A stretch of 64,000 bases of DNA from Bdellovibrionales bacterium (GTDB lineage Bacteria; Bdellovibrionota; UBA1018; CAIMNF01). The stretch lies in NCBI GenBank assembly GCA_040380025.1, contig JBEIJY010000003.1, positions 1-64,000 of the forward strand, written 5' to 3'. Under the pieces are notes generated by a model. The model made no database searches, had not been told where the DNA came from, and was given only the letters and a program-made list of their open reading frames with translations. Made by a program: the position numbers and the translations under genes. Shown here piece after piece: positions 35,185 through 63,357 of the stretch. Within the stretch, counting starts at the first letter, position 1, and each line of letters opens with the position of its first letter.

Positions 35185-36054
35185 ATGGAGATGAAGACTC
35201 AAAGAGCGCGATGCGTGTTGATCATTCTGATGGTACTGGGAGCGACCCCTTCGGTCGGTAATGCGGCCAAGACCTTGAAGTTCAACGCCAAAAACAAATC
35301 GTGTGTGGCGAAGACCTGGGACGGGACCAAGTGGGTTCCGGTGGATCGTGCCATTCTTGCGGGTCGCCCGGTCACCCGGGTCGAGGCGTTCAAAAAAGAA
35401 ATGACCCGGTTCCGGGTCGATTCAAAGTGGTACGTCGCTTCGAGTCGATGCATCCAGACCGCGAAGCCCAAACCCGAGCAAGCATCCGAGCTCGTAGCAG
35501 ATCAAGTCGAACCAGCTGCGAAACCAGCAGAACAACCGCGAGACGGCCTGGTGGTTCGTGCAGCACTCGAATACGGAAATTTCAGGCGGACCCTCGGCTT
35601 CGGGGGAACGAATTATCGGGTCTCGTTGTCGACGATCGCGGCGAAGGCCGGTTTCGGGCAGCGCAAGTTTTTTGAATCCAGCTCGTTCTACTGGGGCTGG
35701 AACATCGACGCATTTTTCGGTGTCTCGAAAGTCGAGGTCGAGTCGGGGGCTCCCTTTGCCTATTCGGGCACGGGAGTGTTCACGGCAGGGAGCCGGGCCA
35801 GCGGCGCGATCGGATCGCGGCTTTCGAATCGGATTGATTCGCAGTTGGATCTCGGCGCGGGGCTGTCGTACGCGAGCATGAAAGAAACGGGAGTGGCGGG
35901 CGCCACCAACCCGAAGTCCGTGATGGTGTTCCCTTTATTGAAGTTGGGATTCGTGTATCAGACCGATTCGAAGCTCGGGTTCGGGGTTGAGGCGATGTCA
36001 CAGGGGATTTTACGGGACTACGCGTTTTCGGGGGGTGTGCAATGGGTGTTTTGA
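35185..36054 (+). CDS. Outer-membrane beta-barrel protein with basic N-terminal domain
   Basis: Signal peptide, Cys-paired N-domain, Pro/Ala linker, amphipathic strands, C-terminal VQWVF. Confidence 0.65.
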   Translation: MEMKTQRARCVLIILMVLGATPSVGNAAKTLKFNAKNKSCVAKTWDGTKWVPVDRAILAGRPVTRVEAFKKEMTRFRVDSKWYVASSRCIQTAKPKPEQASELVADQVEPAAKPAEQPRDGLVVRAALEYGNFRRTLGFGGTNYRVSLSTIAAKAGFGQRKFFESSSFYWGWNIDAFFGVSKVEVESGAPFAYSGTGVFTAGSRASGAIGSRLSNRIDSQLDLGAGLSYASMKETGVAGATNPKSVMVFPLLKLGFVYQTDSKLGFGVEAMSQGILRDYAFSGGVQWVF

Positions 36055-38279
36055 AGCAGATTCGACGATCGGGAAAATCATGGTTCGTTTTGTTGGCGGT
36101 GTTGTCGGCCAGCGCCTGCTCGAAGTGGCAGGTCGGCATGGGGTATGGCAGTTCCCCGAAACAGATCATCGCGATCGCCACAGGAGCCAATCACACCTGT
36201 GCCGTCGTGGATGGCGGGCTTCAGTGCTGGGGAAACAATCTCAATGCCCAGCTCGGCATTGGCGTGGCCGGAGGGGTTGCGATCAGCCCTGAGCAAGTCA
36301 TTCCTCCGAACAGCGGAGTCACCGCAGTCGCGTCGGGGGAGAATCACACCTGCGCTGTGGTGCGGGGCGGACTTCAGTGCTGGGGAAGTGATGCGGCCGG
36401 ACAGCTGGGAAATGGTGCGGCCACCGGGGTTGTTTTGAGCCCTTCAGAAATCCTTCCGCCGGACAGTGGTGTCACGGCAGTTGCTGCTGGTTCTTCTCAC
36501 ACCTGTGCCATCGTGAATGGAGACCTGAAGTGCTGGGGAAGAAATGATGCTGGTCAAATCGGAAACGGCGGATTGAATAACGTGCCCGCGGACGCCCCAA
36601 GCCCGGTCACTGTGATCTATGGCGGAGTCACCGCGGTGGCAGCGGGGGCATCGCATACCTGTGCCGTGGTGAATGGCGGGCTTCAGTGCTGGGGAAGTGA
36701 TGGTTCGGGCCAGCAGGGAAATGGAAATCCGACGAACAACGTTTTGATTCCCGTCCCTGTATCGGGTTTCGCGAGCGGAGTCACCGCAGTCGCGACGGGG
36801 GAGGTTCACACTTGCGCCGTCAGGAATGGCGGGCTTCATTGCTGGGGAAGTGACGGAAGCAATCAACTTGGAAATGGCGCGAACGGCAGTACCGACATCC
36901 CGGCGGCAATCTCCCCGCTCGACACCGGGGTCAGCTCGGTTGCGGCGGGACGGTTGCACACCTGCGCCGTTGTCAATGGTGGGCTTCAGTGCTGGGGAAG
37001 CGATAGTTTTGGTCAGCTCGGAAACATCCCCGATGCGAATTCCGAAAGCCCGGCAGAAATCCTTCCTGCGAATAGCGGAGTCACCATGATCGCGGCGGGG
37101 GATTCGCACACCTGTGCCGTGGTGAATAACGGGATCCGGTGTTGGGGATCGGACGGATACGGACAAATCGGGAATGGGTTGCCGAACAGCTCTCTTACGG
37201 CGCCAAGCGCATCGATTGTAACTGGAATCACCGCGGTCGCGGCGGGCGAGTCTCACAGCTGTGCCGTGGTGAATGGCGGTCTTCAGTGCTGGGGAAGCAA
37301 CAGTATTGGTCAGCTTGGAACTGGTGCGACCGGAGGCAATTCCACCACTCCTGCGCAGATCATTCCGCCGAGTAGCCAGGTCACCGCGGTCGCGGTCGGA
37401 GATGCTCATACCTGTGCCGTGGTGAATGGCGGTCTTCAGTGTTGGGGAAGTGATCAAAGAGGTCAGCTCGGAAATGGCTTAGGTTCTAGCAACCCCAACC
37501 CCGAGCAGATCATTCCGATCAACAGTGGGGTCACTGCAGTCGCGGCGGGGGCATCGCATACCTGTGCTGTGGTGAATGGCGGTCTTCAGTGCTGGGGAAG
37601 TGATAGCTCTGGTCAGCAGGGGAATGGCATTCCGACGGGCAACGTAACCAGCCCTGCTCCGATCTTTCCGCCGGGTAGTCAAGTCACCGCCGTCGCGGCG
37701 GGTTCCTCTCATACCTGTGCCGTGGTGAATGGCGGGCTTCAATGCTGGGGAAGTGATGGTTCGGGTCAGCAGGGGAATGGCAATCCGACGGGCAATGTAA
37801 CCAGCCCTGCTTCGATTTTTCCGTCGGGTAGCCAAGTCATCGCCGTCGCGGCGGGGACATCGCATACCTGTGCCGTGGTGAACGGCGGGCTTCAGTGCTG
37901 GGGGAATGATAACTTTGGTCAGCTCGGAAACGCTGCGGGGGGGGATGTCAATAGCCCCATGGAAATCATTCCGCTGAATAGCGGAGTCACCGCAGTCGCG
38001 ACGGGTTTGTATCATAGCTGCGCGATTCGGAGTGGGGCTCTCCAATGTTGGGGAGGAGACAGCTTCGGTCAGCAGGGGAATGGCAATCCAACAGGAAACG
38101 TGGACAGCCCTGTGACTGTGCCTGGTTTCGCGACCGGAACCGCCGCGCTGGCGACAGGTGCGAACCACACCTGTGCCGTGGCGAACGGTGTACTGCGGTG
38201 CTGGGGACGAAACTTATTGGGCCAGCTCGGAATCGGAGAAGACGGAATCGTCCGGTCTCCGGTGGCGATCAGCCTGTAG
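36042..38279 (+). CDS. RCC1/BLIP-II repeat lipoprotein (14 repeats)
   Basis: Lipobox-like SASAC; 14 copies of V.AG..H[TS]CA...G.L.CWG.(N/D)..GQ.G. Confidence 0.9.
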   Translation: MGVLKQIRRSGKSWFVLLAVLSASACSKWQVGMGYGSSPKQIIAIATGANHTCAVVDGGLQCWGNNLNAQLGIGVAGGVAISPEQVIPPNSGVTAVASGENHTCAVVRGGLQCWGSDAAGQLGNGAATGVVLSPSEILPPDSGVTAVAAGSSHTCAIVNGDLKCWGRNDAGQIGNGGLNNVPADAPSPVTVIYGGVTAVAAGASHTCAVVNGGLQCWGSDGSGQQGNGNPTNNVLIPVPVSGFASGVTAVATGEVHTCAVRNGGLHCWGSDGSNQLGNGANGSTDIPAAISPLDTGVSSVAAGRLHTCAVVNGGLQCWGSDSFGQLGNIPDANSESPAEILPANSGVTMIAAGDSHTCAVVNNGIRCWGSDGYGQIGNGLPNSSLTAPSASIVTGITAVAAGESHSCAVVNGGLQCWGSNSIGQLGTGATGGNSTTPAQIIPPSSQVTAVAVGDAHTCAVVNGGLQCWGSDQRGQLGNGLGSSNPNPEQIIPINSGVTAVAAGASHTCAVVNGGLQCWGSDSSGQQGNGIPTGNVTSPAPIFPPGSQVTAVAAGSSHTCAVVNGGLQCWGSDGSGQQGNGNPTGNVTSPASIFPSGSQVIAVAAGTSHTCAVVNGGLQCWGNDNFGQLGNAAGGDVNSPMEIIPLNSGVTAVATGLYHSCAIRSGALQCWGGDSFGQQGNGNPTGNVDSPVTVPGFATGTAALATGANHTCAVANGVLRCWGRNLLGQLGIGEDGIVRSPVAISL

Positions 38280-59918: not shown

Positions 59919-61100
59919 ATGCTCCGACCGATTGCCGCCAGATTCGGAATTTTCATTTTTTCATTCGTCTTCCTGATTGGCCCGGCAAGGGCCGATGCGG
60001 AGCTCGATCGCTTGTACGAGAATGCCAGCGGAGCCCCCCAACTCGCGATGATCGAGCAGGCGAAGACCTCGATCGACATCGAGATTTACTCAATGAAGGA
60101 CTCGTCCGTGTTCCAGGCGCTCACGCGCGCGCTCGATCGCGGCATCACCCTCAGGATCGTCCAGGAACCGAGACCGGTCGCCGACCCGTGCCGGGTGTTT
60201 GATCCGCCGACCCAGGCCGACGAGCCGAAATGCCGTGAACAGAAGAACTTCGTCGGGCTGGTCCGCTCGAAGGGCGGTCGCTATGAGCCTTTCGAAAAGG
60301 CCCTGTGCGGTCCGGGGGACGGTAGCGGAATGTGCTATCAGCACGGCAAGATTCTGATCGTCGATGCGAATCTGGTGGCGATCAGTACGGGCAATTTCGA
60401 TGCCTCGAGCTTTTGCCATCGCGAGCAGGGGCCATCGAAGTGCAATCGCGACTACACGGTCGTCTCGCGCGATCCCAAGGTGGTGCGCGCGATCCGGTCG
60501 GTGTTCGAGGCGGATCTGGCAAAAAAAACCACCGATATTCCCTCGATTCTCGCATCTGCGCCCAGGGTCACCGTGAGTCCGCATTCTCTTGCCCCGATTC
60601 TTTCGTTTTTGAACTCCGCAAAAAAGACGATCCAAATCCAAAATCAGTACCTGAAGAATCCCGATGTCAATGCTGCCTTGATCCGCGCCGCCCAGCGAGG
60701 GGTGAGGGTGTTCGTGATGGTGGTGAGTGCCTGTTTCTTCGGTAGGCCTGATCAGAACGCCGTGGAGCACTGGACCCGCATCTATACCGCATTCGATGCC
60801 GCGGGAATCCAGACGCGCGTGTTCAACTCGAGCATCCAGATCGGCGGGCTTCCCGGCTACTTGCATGCCAAGGCGATTCTGATCGACAGCGCCCGCGCCT
60901 GGGTGGGCTCGGTGAACGGCTCGACAACAAGCCTTGCCGCGAACCGCGAATACGGGATTTTTTCGGACGAGCCCGCGGTGGTGCGGGATCTGGGATCGTT
61001 GATGTACACCGACTATGTGGCGCCCGGCGCGGGCACCTGGCGCGAGAGCCTGCAGTGCAGGCCGGATCACTCCGCATCGAGACTTCCGGAAGAGCCCTGA
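59919..61100 (+). CDS. Secreted phospholipase D superfamily protein
   Basis: Signal peptide ARA; two HxKxxxxD motifs (HGKILIVD, HAKAILID). Confidence 0.88.
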   Translation: MLRPIAARFGIFIFSFVFLIGPARADAELDRLYENASGAPQLAMIEQAKTSIDIEIYSMKDSSVFQALTRALDRGITLRIVQEPRPVADPCRVFDPPTQADEPKCREQKNFVGLVRSKGGRYEPFEKALCGPGDGSGMCYQHGKILIVDANLVAISTGNFDASSFCHREQGPSKCNRDYTVVSRDPKVVRAIRSVFEADLAKKTTDIPSILASAPRVTVSPHSLAPILSFLNSAKKTIQIQNQYLKNPDVNAALIRAAQRGVRVFVMVVSACFFGRPDQNAVEHWTRIYTAFDAAGIQTRVFNSSIQIGGLPGYLHAKAILIDSARAWVGSVNGSTTSLAANREYGIFSDEPAVVRDLGSLMYTDYVAPGAGTWRESLQCRPDHSASRLPEEP

Positions 61101-61111
61101 GGGCCGGTCTC

Positions 61112-61153
61112 AAAACAAAACCGCGCCCCTGGCAGCTTGCCGGGAGCGCGGTT
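61112..61153 (-). terminator. Terminator between convergent PLD and parB
   Basis: AACCGCGC-CCCTGGCA...TGCCGGG-A-GCGCGGTT hairpin with an A-tract on its left (U-tract on the minus strand). Confidence 0.7.
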
Positions 61154-61174: not shown

Positions 61175-62071
61175 CTACTTCAGATTCGCGAGCGTGCGAT
61201 CGACCGCCTCCGAGAGCCGCATCAGCTCCGCGCGCATCTGCTCCAGACGCTCGCGTCCTTCGCCGGCCTTCCAGGTGAACCCCGGGATCTTCACTTTCTT
61301 CGGAGTCACCGCATAGGTGAACGGCTTCGGCCCCGTTGCAGGCTTGCTTTGGTTTGTCTTCAGGATTCGCGCCTTCGAGATCAGCAGATCGCCCTCGTCC
61401 TCGCGCGAGGCATTGGCGATGATCGACACATGCTCCTCGACCGGTGCGTTCAGGAGATTCCGGAGGAGGGAGCGGTTCTTCAGGTTCTTCTCTTTCAAAA
61501 GCTCCTTGGTTTCGGCCGGAAGTCGCGTGAATCCGATGCACTCGGTGATGCGGGATTTCTTCTTGCCGAATCCGGTCGCGATCGCCTCGTGGCTCGAATA
61601 CGCACCTGCGGTCAGAAGCGAGTTGTAGCCTTCGCCTTCTTCGATCGGGTGGAGGTCGACGCGGTCGAGGTTCTCGCGCAGGGCGATCTCGTGAACCGCC
61701 TTGTCGGTCGAGTTGATCACGCGCGCGGGAATCCGCTCGAGTCCGGCCAGTTTCGAGGCGCGCAGACGGCGCTCACCGGCGATCACCTTGTAGCGGTCGC
61801 CGTCTTGCACCACGAGGATGGGCTGGAGCACGCCGTGCTCCTTGATGGAGTGGGCGAGGGCCGCGATTTCTTCGTCATCGAAATGCGTCCGCACCTGGAG
61901 CTCGGATGCGTCGACTTTTTCGACCGGGACGAAGTTCACCAGAAACGTGGTGAGGCCCTTCAGTCCGCTGTGGGTGTTGTCGGCGCTCACCCGCGCGGTC
62001 GAGTAGAGTTGCTTCAGATATCCGCTTCCTTGGCGGGTTTTTGCTTCTTTTTTGTTGTCTTTGGTTTCCAT
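61175..62071 (-). CDS. parB: ParB/RepB/Spo0J family partition protein
   Basis: LA.SIKEHGVLQPILV, IAGERRLRA, ENLDRVDL.PIEE, HTH SHEAIATGFGKKKSRITECI; SD AGGAGG. Confidence 0.92.
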   Translation of the reverse strand: METKDNKKEAKTRQGSGYLKQLYSTARVSADNTHSGLKGLTTFLVNFVPVEKVDASELQVRTHFDDEEIAALAHSIKEHGVLQPILVVQDGDRYKVIAGERRLRASKLAGLERIPARVINSTDKAVHEIALRENLDRVDLHPIEEGEGYNSLLTAGAYSSHEAIATGFGKKKSRITECIGFTRLPAETKELLKEKNLKNRSLLRNLLNAPVEEHVSIIANASREDEGDLLISKARILKTNQSKPATGPKPFTYAVTPKKVKIPGFTWKAGEGRERLEQMRAELMRLSEAVDRTLANLK

Positions 62072-62102
62072 TCGTTCCTCCTTGATTTTATGAGAGTTCC
62101 GC

Positions 62103-63161
62103 TCAGTTCAGGAGCTCGCGGGTGAGCTCGGTCAGATCTTGCGCGCCATTTCCCTTCGAGTTCACGTCGAGCACGACGGTCCGGCGCTTGGTGGCCTCGT
62201 TCAGGTCGGCGCTCCGGTTCACCACCGATTGGGCGCAAAAATCGGCGAATTGCGAGCGCAGCTCACCCAGCACTTCCTGGCTGATCACCTCGCGGTTGTC
62301 GTACATGTTCGGGATGATCTTCACATCGAGGGTCCGCCGGAACTCGCGTTGCATCTCATCGATGGTCGCCATGACGAGCGACATTCCGTGGAACGAGAGC
62401 GGATTCGTCGCGCAGATCACGTTCACGCGATTCGAGGCCACCAGCATGGAGCCGTTCAGGATCGATGCGGCCGGGTTCGTGTCGGCGATGATGAGATCAT
62501 ACTGGTCCGAGATGCGGGTGATCGCCTCGGAGAGGCGGTATTCGCGCCGGGTTTTGTTGTTCAGCGGGATCTCGATGTTGCAGAGCTGAAGGTTCGCCGG
62601 AATCAGATCGAGTCCGGGAGAAACATTCATCACGGCCTGATCGATCGGGAGATCATTGATGAGCACATCGTAAATGGTGGGGCGTTCGTGCGCATCGAGC
62701 ACATCGAGATTCACGGTCAGGTGGCCTTGACCGTCGAGATCGATCGCAAGCACGCGGTAGCCCAGGATGGATGCGATCATGACGAACTGCGCCGTAAGAG
62801 TGGATTTGCCGGTTCCGCCTTTTACGTTGTAGAACATCTGGATTTTATTTTTTGGATGCGGCGCGACATGCCTGGTCGCCGCGGCGATCGCGTCGCTCAC
62901 CACAAGAGCGCTTCCTGCGGCTTCCGCGCCTGCGCCCATCAGTTCGGCGCGCACCGATTCGTGAACGCTCAGGTCGAATTCCCGGAGCATTCGAAAGAAA
63001 TTTTGAACCTCCTCAAGGGCGATGACTTTTCGATCGACGTTCCCCACGCGCTTTTTTTGCGTGTTGATGATGCCGTTGTTTTCGAATGCTGGAATGAGAT
63101 TTTTATCGATTTTGGCGAGCTGGGCAAATTCGTTGGGTGTAAAGACCATGTCTCGTAGCAT
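62103..63161 (-). CDS. parA: ParA-family ATPase with N-terminal HTH extension (type Ia-like)
   Basis: SD AAGGAGG before ATG 63161; N-terminal FTPNEFAQLAKIDKNLIPAFENNGII (MerR/excisionase-like HTH); deviant Walker A KGGTGKST, DLDGQG, DLIPAN, DTNP. Confidence 0.9.
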   Translation of the reverse strand: MLRDMVFTPNEFAQLAKIDKNLIPAFENNGIINTQKKRVGNVDRKVIALEEVQNFFRMLREFDLSVHESVRAELMGAGAEAAGSALVVSDAIAAATRHVAPHPKNKIQMFYNVKGGTGKSTLTAQFVMIASILGYRVLAIDLDGQGHLTVNLDVLDAHERPTIYDVLINDLPIDQAVMNVSPGLDLIPANLQLCNIEIPLNNKTRREYRLSEAITRISDQYDLIIADTNPAASILNGSMLVASNRVNVICATNPLSFHGMSLVMATIDEMQREFRRTLDVKIIPNMYDNREVISQEVLGELRSQFADFCAQSVVNRSADLNEATKRRTVVLDVNSKGNGAQDLTELTRELLN

Positions 63162-63187
63162 AGATTCCTCCTTGATCTGTCTCACTG

Positions 63188-63215
63188 AGTGTAAATCGAG
63201 AAGATCAAGAATCAA
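63188..63215 (-). promoter_or_regulatory. Sigma70 promoter of parAB
   Basis: TTGATT-16 bp-TACACT on the minus strand, with a T-rich UP-like element upstream. Confidence 0.6.
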
Positions 63216-63241
63216 TCAAAAACTAAACAAAAAGAGTAGAC

Positions 63242-63357
63242 CGGTCGCCGTGGCGACCGGTGGAGAAAATACTCTCGATGGTGTTGCGTCGGACTCAAGT
63301 CGGTCGCCGTGGCGACCGATGAAGATGGGTTACCCTGATCGGTCGCCACGGCGACCG
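63242..63357. repeat. Three copies of 18-bp palindrome CGGTCGCC-NN-GGCGACCG (candidate parS centromere)
   Basis: Exact copies at 63242-63259 and 63301-63318, reverse-complement copy at 63340-63357, all intergenic upstream of parA. Confidence 0.85.

Follow-up and report, generated by a model that had tools for sequence, protein, structure and literature searches.

Within the 64,000 nucleotides analysed here (positions 1 to 64,000 of contig JBEIJY010000003.1 of a Bdellovibrionales bacterium, assembly GCA_040380025.1; hereafter, the window) there is a parA-parB operon preceded by copies of a palindrome. We refer to the operon as parAB2, to its products as ParA2 and ParB2, and to the palindrome, a candidate centromere, as parS2. 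On the whole, we consider it somewhat probable that together they make up a second ParABS system, which likely descends from a plasmid system that the ancestor of the order (CAIMNF01 in GTDB) domesticated, resides on an arm of the main chromosome and likely serves there as an auxiliary centromere. The textbook bacterial chromosome has one ParABS, located at the origin, and systems with a private parS are those of plasmids and secondary replicons.

Two ParABS systems in one genome

An earlier note on this DNA had placed the parA-parB operon between a PLD gene and an ABC permease, and this is where the two genes are found (Table 1). It had also proposed that the pair is additional to another system on the main chromosome. 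Indeed, contig C6 of the same assembly (2.35 Mb, 98% complete, 53 contigs) carries Soj-type parA1, parB1 and TGTTCCACGTGGAACA, ~14 kb from dnaA, and the pair in the window is therefore the second system. The only canonical-type parS, which differs from the Bacillus form at two positions, is the one next to parAB1 on C6. ParA2 is not a short Soj-type ParA encoded next to rsmG near oriC; this role is filled by parAB1 on C6. In the 21 parAB1 loci considered (5 kb retrieved for each), the canonical site is present in 18 and the new motif in none. The genome also encodes SMC.

Candidate parS2 sites

Upstream of parA2 there are three exact copies of CGGTCGCC-NN-GGCGACCG, starting at 63242, 63301 and 63340, that is, at a spacing of 59 and 39 bp. 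These copies, and the extension of the first one to a 22-bp palindrome, had been recognized before and are confirmed; we add a fourth, degenerate copy inside parA2. At up to two mismatches, the window contains four matches compared to a mean of 0.13 in 100 shuffled sequences, none of which reached four. In the whole assembly the exact 18-mer is represented only by the three upstream copies (an order-5 Markov model expects 0.007 per genome), making the motif locus-specific rather than similar to repetitive extragenic palindromes (REP). Two lone copies of the 16-mer GGTCGCC-NN-GGCGACC are found elsewhere in the genome (C1:22999 and C6:56214; the order-5 model expects 0.05), both with a non-consensus TC spacer. 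Both encode the same short peptide in one frame and probably are coding coincidences, despite the low number expected.

Among relatives, the exact 16-mer is present within the retrieved stretch of 74 of the 77 ParA2 loci; the remaining three are two contig edges and genome G031, where a rearrangement has put 1.6-3 kb between parA2 and the sites. Genomes have from one to eight copies, and the number, spacing and orientation of the sites vary. The arms are nearly invariant and show no covariation, the flanks are not conserved and have no GTAG, and 241 of the 250 exact sites have a purine-pyrimidine spacer. Moreover, a site with at most one mismatch to the 16-mer occurs no further than 200 nt before the Walker A motif of parA2 in 66 of 75 orthologous loci (G006 and G031, the former with such a site and the latter without, are not part of this count). 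Of the sites in this linker region, 54 are in one reading frame and 27 in another, a sign that selection acts on the DNA rather than the protein. The variable number, spacing and orientation, the intragenic copy and the purine-pyrimidine spacer fit the architecture of a parS, as far as sequence can tell, and ParB2 would very probably bind the motif.

Distribution and chromosomal position

ParA2 was detected in 45 of 61 relatives and the exact 16-mer in 48. As would be expected from the earlier note, the two co-occur: the 16-mer is present in all 45 ParA2-positive genomes and absent from 13 of the 16 ParA2-negative ones. The other three ParA2-negative genomes have it near contig ends. In G034 the site is inside a parA2 cut by the contig end, and in G059 the sites follow the ABC permease at the contig end. 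The third, G045, is a 72% complete genome that has three exact sites (G045:C351:18148-19119, L117) and neither parA2 nor the ABC operon nor another recognized gene next to them. A separate observation concerns G251, in which the ABC permease is followed, where the contig ends, by six copies of a one-base variant, GGTCGCCGCCGCGACC (G251:C22:1-420, L112), ParB2 being outside the assembly.

In a broader sample of 300 Bdellovibrionota genomes of at least 90% completeness (70 of this order and 230 others), ParA2 was found in 60 of the 70 and a 17-base form of the motif in 59; neither was found in any of the 230. As the kin are not independent, all these counts are descriptions and not tests. The plasmid-type character attributed to the cassette earlier holds for the type of its ParA (see below), but instead of a lone cassette we are dealing with an old locus fixed across the order. 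The suggested link with filamentous multi-progeny growth is unsupported, because ParAB2 was not found in any of the 230 genomes of other orders and Bdellovibrio bacteriovorus has only one parA next to parB, according to the accessible part of PMC7186360. The available text of PMC10547168 gives this species two identical origin-proximal parS. The class of the present genome, UBA1018, is described as probably predatory in the accessible part of PMC13200544.

In six genomes of four families, parAB2 is on the same contig as dnaA and canonical parB, at a distance from dnaA of 76 kb (G024), 159 kb (G027), 167 kb (G048), 180 kb (G060), 297 kb (G016) and 309 kb (G012). The ABC-2 operon is upstream of parAB2 in 13 of 15 loci, and tig is within 13 kb of it in 30 of 60 genomes (on another contig in 29 and 286 kb off in one), suggesting that parAB2 was inserted once, long ago, between the ABC-2 operon and tig. 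The neighbours of parAB2 are core genes, namely tufB, rplK-rpoBC, rpsB-tsf-pyrH-frr, truA and tig. In agreement with the earlier note, no rep, integrase or transposase families were found in the Pfam scan of 58 window open reading frames (ORFs; 57 of the 103 coding-like frames picked by codon bias and one added) and four locus proteins. A plasmid-type Rep query of the genome gave no match, although this query had no positive control. Likewise, across 14 loci with flanks of up to 10 kb, no rep gene was found beside parAB2, nor was a DnaA-box cluster or a dif-like site with simple patterns.

Two other associations were considered and rejected. For a link of parAB2 to the terminus, simple patterns gave no dif-like match and no DnaA-box cluster in the 14 loci, and the location is origin-proximal. 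As for rpoBC, the two are close in the genus of this genome but 204 kb (G060) and 346 kb (G027) apart in others.

Near the origin, two assemblies (G270:C3:1403728-1462024 and G057:C3:119484-189424) each have clustered matches to the DnaA C-terminal domain, representing a duplication, mobile DnaA-like genes or an assembly error. One contig of G016 has two additional divergent RNA polymerase beta-like matches (G016:C4:31438 and 110255), which suggests a co-binned large phage or virus.

ParA2 and ParB2 proteins

ParA2 consists of an N-terminal winged helix (~aa 5-65), a variable linker and a Soj-like ATPase. Its deviant Walker A motif is KGGTGKST, and K114, G118, K119, D141, D143 and D227 are invariant in 66 sequences. 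The AlphaFold model has pLDDT of 89.7, and its N-domain, predicted with pLDDT ~90, is arranged as helix-helix-hairpin-helix. The model (residues 1-352) superimposes on Vibrio cholerae ParA2 (7npd; Z 27.5, rmsd 3.2, 305 aligned) and on 3ez9, which we take to be the P7 plasmid ParA (Z 21.1, rmsd 3.5, 277 aligned). Both superpositions begin at residue 36 of the known structure, ParA2 being without the first ~35 residues of these proteins. The match to Soj-like 8ray has Z 35.6 and rmsd 1.6 over 248 aligned residues. For the N-domain profile the best PDB match is the 3ez9 winged helix (E 0.042), with the wing motif in common; the ESM Atlas yielded no usable match to this domain. The profile match and the model superposition thus support the proposed assignment of ParA2 to type Ia, that is, to ParAs with a helix-turn-helix (HTH).

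A ParB2 match follows parA2 in 30 of 30 loci. ParB2 has the CTP pocket motifs QVR, GERRLRA and ENLDR, the recognition helix KSRITEC and a second motif, R200-x3-R204. All 52 orthologues compared have KSRITEC, R200, R204 and most of the N-terminal peptide (aa 11-26) unchanged, and the CTP pocket of ParB2, as well as Walker A and Walker B of ParA2, is invariant or almost so. The CTP-pocket residues are kept relative to Myxococcus xanthus ParB (7bnk; E 1.7e-38). At the ParB specificity positions R173, N178 and G201 (numbering and role from the accessible part of PMC7383237), ParB2 has K, E and S, the G201 column being S/A and uncertain by one residue; ParB1 keeps R173 and G201. In PDB, the DNA-binding domain of ParB2 best matches Noc (E 7e-8), whereas SopB chains rank below Noc and Spo0J, at a marginal E 0.4-0.7. 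In the full alignment SopB is absent among the matches listed, and the N-domain is nearest to M. xanthus ParB, Noc and Spo0J. Judging by sequence, the secondary arginine of SopB, described in the available part of PMC3597684, may correspond to R200 of ParB2.

Across 21 genomes the second system is more conserved than the canonical one. The mean pairwise identity is 75% for ParA2 versus 68% for ParA1, and 69% for ParB2 versus 58% for ParB1, the last value being somewhat lowered by the variable N-terminal tail of ParB1. In the same genomes the distances correlate between the two systems with Spearman coefficients of 0.72-0.81, compared to 0.84 within ParAB1. A predicted complex between the ParA2 dimer and the N-terminal peptide of ParB2 scored 0.04 and is used neither for nor against any interpretation.

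Plasmid relatives and origin

The best plasmid matches to ParA2 come from Ca. Megaera (38% identity) and Ca. Bandiella (36%), and each of these genes is upstream of a parB. The corresponding ParBs are among the top plasmid matches of the ParB2 DNA-binding domain, and in both Ca. Megaera records (CP113872.1, CP113871.1) a DnaA-like rep gene adjoins the par cassette. A direct palindrome scan of these loci revealed that on the Ca. Megaera plasmid CP113872.1 (33% GC) the parB stop is immediately followed by the identical 16-mer, its spacer being AC (L074:4630-4649). It occurs once in 48 kb of this plasmid versus 0.01 expected. On the Ca. Bandiella plasmid NZ_CP104165.1, GGTCGC-AACT-GCGACC is right after parB (L075:4628-4651). 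Related palindromes with a TCGC core are found beside related ParBs on Cardinium CP101108.1 (two copies, in a GTTCGC form; L246:2332, 4180), on the second Megaera plasmid CP113871.1 (L160:3410) and on a 28% GC contig (L167:1498). All these candidate parS sites are GC-rich palindromes embedded in AT-rich sequence. In five cases the outer bases of the palindrome shift together with the start of the recognition helix; from sequence, covariation of the two is suggestive only.

The motif is absent from five plasmid ParB loci with weak DNA-binding-domain matches (Streptomyces, Variovorax, two Pseudomonas and Stutzerimonas). A short-word search of plasmids gave chance matches in GC-rich records, with no par annotation among the 30 of 164 matches listed, and viral contigs gave five single matches, none of them beside a ParB motif.

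In a quick ParA tree, ParA2 sequences form one clade (SH-aLRT 100) within N-extended ParAs that include plasmid proteins (93) and outside the Soj clade that holds ParA1 (SH-aLRT 100). ParB2 and plasmid ParBs have in common two one-residue insertions and key residues. As other members of the family come from plasmids and from contigs with a rep gene, we infer that the transfer went from plasmid to chromosome.

Several loci of the wider family were also observed. Two metagenome contigs (L169:3209-3685 and L176:2861-3585) have an HTH-ParA/ParB pair with three GTGTGGGACRTCCCACAC palindromes upstream and a canonical parB no further than 3 kb away; in addition, a Rep-like gene and two ORFs resembling tyrosine recombinases were read by eye on L169. 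Here, possibly, a plasmid has integrated at the chromosomal parB. On mobile-looking contigs of Bdellovibrionota (G354, L142:3953-6806; G276, L143:1286-3888), a wider-family HTH-ParA is followed by a low-complexity ORF of 500-600 aa, and no ParB was recognized by eye beside it. Finally, the 713-aa protein P0125 consists of two tandem HTH-ParA units.

Comparison with known systems

By protein anatomy ParABS2 would work like a type Ia plasmid ParABS. It does not belong to the canonical chromosomal systems, nor, it seems, to the Sop subfamily. With type Ia systems (F SopABC, P1/P7 ParABS, V. cholerae chromosome II ParAB2) it shares a winged-helix ParA that can be superimposed over its full length, and a parA-parB operon with a private palindrome. 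Type Ia systems are found on plasmids, prophages or secondary replicons near the origin. In contrast, ParABS2 is on the primary chromosome across the order (on the dnaA contig in six genomes), among core neighbours, beside the canonical system and with no rep gene.

The earlier comparison with F Sop stands for the ParA type and the site geometry. ParB2 is in sequence nearer to Spo0J and Noc than to SopB. The sopC consensus is TGGGACC-PuPy-GGTCCCA, arranged in 43-45 bp tandem repeats (available text of PMC3177203). Measured against this description, parS2 has the same 7-2-7 layout, CC-Pu-Py-GG core and purine-pyrimidine spacer rule, but its arms agree with those of sopC in no more than 3 of 7 positions, and its spacing is irregular, with no tandem repeats.

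The cassettes of endosymbiont plasmids (Megaera, Bandiella, Cardinium) have the same family of ParA with an N-terminal extension, ParBs with the same insertions, Glu at the N178 position and the R-x-x-L-R motif, and an identical or related TCGC-core palindrome beside parB. However, they are on plasmids, have one or two sites, mostly after parB, and their ParA is only ~35-38% identical to ParA2. Our literature search found no description of the parS of these plasmids.

As for canonical ParABS (Soj/Spo0J; B. bacteriovorus ParA3/ParB/parS), ParABS2 resembles it in the Soj-like ATPase fold, in the ParB N-domain and in being chromosomal and vertically inherited. It differs in having another site, an extra winged helix and K/E/S at the three specificity positions defined in the accessible part of PMC7383237, in its distance from dnaA (75-310 kb, not ~15 kb), in the placement of ParA2 outside the Soj clade and in coexisting with a canonical system.

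Known precedents for a plasmid par on a chromosome are strain-level. In Ralstonia pickettii 12J, as described in the available part of PMC5450999, a plasmid-type par with its own parS is on the chromosome as an integrated plasmid, whereas in our case only the parABS is left and the site is conserved throughout an order. Noc-NBS of Firmicutes also represents a second chromosomal CTP clamp of the ParB family with a re-specified HTH, but Noc is not paired with a ParA and its sites are dispersed (accessible part of PMC4331003), while ParABS2 has a ParA and a single cluster of sites. A description of this system or its site was not found in the open literature, subscription papers and supplements being outside the scope of the search. 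No paper was found that has the motif strings together with 'parS', although a paper with one string alone would escape such a two-term search.

Possible function and alternative explanations

How might ParABS2 work? ParB2 dimers would read GGTCGCC-RY-GGCGACC, close on CTP and spread across neighbouring kilobases. ParA2-ATP would coat the nucleoid, the conserved N-terminal peptide of ParB2 would stimulate hydrolysis, and the locus would be pulled by the usual diffusion ratchet. Consequently, a point 75-310 kb from oriC might take up its position or separate shortly after the origin centromere and without depending on it. A likely side role would be for parAB2 to regulate itself through the ParA2 winged helix and ParB2 spreading. 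That ParA2 and ParB2 move the locus is deduced from what is known of the family together with the conserved ATPase and the ParB2 N-terminal peptide, and active positioning or segregation of the locus seems to us somewhat probable. We are evenly divided over a more far-reaching view, in which the whole order has a dicentric chromosome: a plasmid system with a parS family not described before (TCGC core, common to endosymbiont plasmids) would have been captured once, stripped of its replicon, held under stronger constraint than the native ParABS and kept on the origin-proximal arm, where it would actively serve as a second, orthogonal centromere.

Several points weigh against the auxiliary centromere. 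The proximal site, being close to the promoter, suits a regulatory role as well. In the ParB tree, support for grouping ParB2 with plasmid ParBs is weak (61/55), and a ParB1+ParB2 clade is not rejected (p-AU 0.14). In the six genomes in which parAB2 is linked to dnaA, neither the distance (2.5-11% of the assembly) nor the arm (four on the right, downstream of dnaA, and two on the left) nor the orientation (five of six facing oriC) is fixed. ParAB2 is dispensable in some lineages, which have truly lost it: among the ten ParA2-negative genomes that were checked, the permease is present in eight. Two of these, G008 (same genus) and G020, have tig abutting the permease, and five more have other genes behind it; parAB2 and the motif are missing at this place in all seven, the eighth being G251. 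With ParABS1 and SMC intact, no need for ParABS2 is evident. Finally, all genomes are metagenome assemblies, and kin among them are not independent.

The best of the alternatives, although in our view unlikely, is a regulatory or DNA-organising module without mechanical partition. Either ParB2, as a clamp similar to KorB or VirB, or the winged helix of ParA2 would bind the palindromes and either control parAB2 and its neighbours or mark a local domain. KorB and VirB are ParB-family clamps that act as regulators, and the winged helix of plasmid ParA, the type that ParA2 carries, autorepresses par operons. Furthermore, 193 of 287 sites with at most one mismatch are upstream of parA2, the nearest usually being 80-200 bp from the start. 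However, a purely self-regulating module would be without evident benefit, and the neighbours change. Sites 1.6-3 kb off in G031, or 3' of parB on the related plasmids, are unlike an operator, and strong selection maintains the full ATPase as well as the ParB2 N-terminal peptide.

Distinctly less probable is a role in plasmid handling, whereby the chromosomal copy would exclude plasmids of the same parS family by incompatibility or partition small replicons that carry only the site. Partition-based plasmid incompatibility is well established, a free plasmid does carry the identical parS-like 16-mer, and related HTH-ParA genes are present on mobile-looking contigs in the phylum (G354, G276). 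Nonetheless, no plasmid with the site was seen in the order, where the sites cluster at the chromosomal locus, and known carriers are endosymbiont plasmids. The site is also undiversified across the order, unlike a target of defence.

We give still less credit to the possibility that parAB2 is a neutral or selfish relic of an integrated plasmid with no benefit to the host. Plasmid ancestry and repeated clean losses would agree with it, but ParAB2 is more conserved than canonical ParAB, and there are no stops inside 62 ParA matches, among the matches listed. GC3 of parA2 and parB2 is at the level of host genes (0.75-0.80 versus 0.73-0.76), and no other plasmid genes are left at the locus.

It is very improbable that the palindromes are terminators of the ABC-2 operon or REP-like repeats unconnected to ParB2. 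Copy 1 precedes a T-run, is called terminator-like and has GTAG ahead of it on the plus strand, so that this copy could double as a terminator. Across relatives, however, the sites are unlikely to be terminators because a T-tract follows only 14 of 147 exact upstream sites; besides, there are at most eight copies per genome, and the invariant arms lack covariation and flanking GTAG. The sites are absent behind the permease where parAB2 is gone, are retained by parA2 where the ABC operon is gone, and occur also inside parA and after plasmid parB. Equally hard to credit is a chromid or megaplasmid with parAB2 as its ordinary partition system. Although the genome is in 53 contigs and the combination of type-Ia ParA and private parS is typical of secondary replicons (accessible part of PMC5450999), the linkage to dnaA and canonical parB in six genomes, the neighbouring rpoBC, tufB, rpsB, tsf and tig, and the lack of rep, a DnaA-box cluster and a dif-like site in the 14 loci speak against it.

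If ParABS2 indeed is an auxiliary centromere, an order-wide second system more conserved than the first would show that domestication of a plasmid centromere is possible, and would open the question of how a single chromosome is shared by two motors. The analysis also supplies a candidate parS for the plasmids of Megaera, Bandiella and Cardinium. Related palindromes, each with its own recognition helix, make a natural series for studying the ParB specificity code, and a new ParB-parS pair could become an orthogonal DNA label.

Features of the locus

Coordinates of the features are given in Table 1. The consensus scan called no promoter at parAB2, and the -10 element is therefore tentative; hexamers resembling it, read by eye, are at comparable distance in relatives. 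The hairpin after parB2 is a weak call, since four terminator-like structures were found versus 3.4 expected in shuffled sequences. By GC skew, parAB2 of this genome is on the lagging strand.

Table 1. Features of the parAB2 locus (window positions)
Feature	Position	Strand	Remarks
parB2	61175..62071	-	ParB CTPase clamp, 298 aa; Pfam ParB_N + HTH_ParB
parA2	62103..63161	-	type-Ia ParA ATPase, 352 aa; Pfam AAA_31
Degenerate parS2 copy	62873..62890		inside parA2, in variable-linker DNA; 2 mismatches to 18-mer
Ribosome-binding site (RBS) of parA2	63173-63167	-	AAGGAGG
Putative -10 of parAB2 promoter	63188..63193	-	TACACT; position from sequence; tentative
parS2 candidate copy 1	63240..63261		22-bp palindrome, GT spacer; closest to parA2 promoter region
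parS2 candidate copy 2	63301..63318		GT spacer; 20-bp palindrome 63300-63319
parS2 candidate copy 3	63340..63357		AC spacer
Terminator-like hairpin 3' of parB2	61118..61138	-	faces convergent PLD gene; weak
PLD gene flanking parB2 side	59919-61100	+	convergent with parAB2
ABC-2 permease flanking parA2 side	ends 63378	-	

An identical 12-mer that includes the RBS precedes both parB2 (62075-62086) and parA2 (63165-63176). Elsewhere in the window (36042-38279), a 745-aa RCC1-repeat beta-propeller protein is encoded right after rpoC and tRNA-Val.

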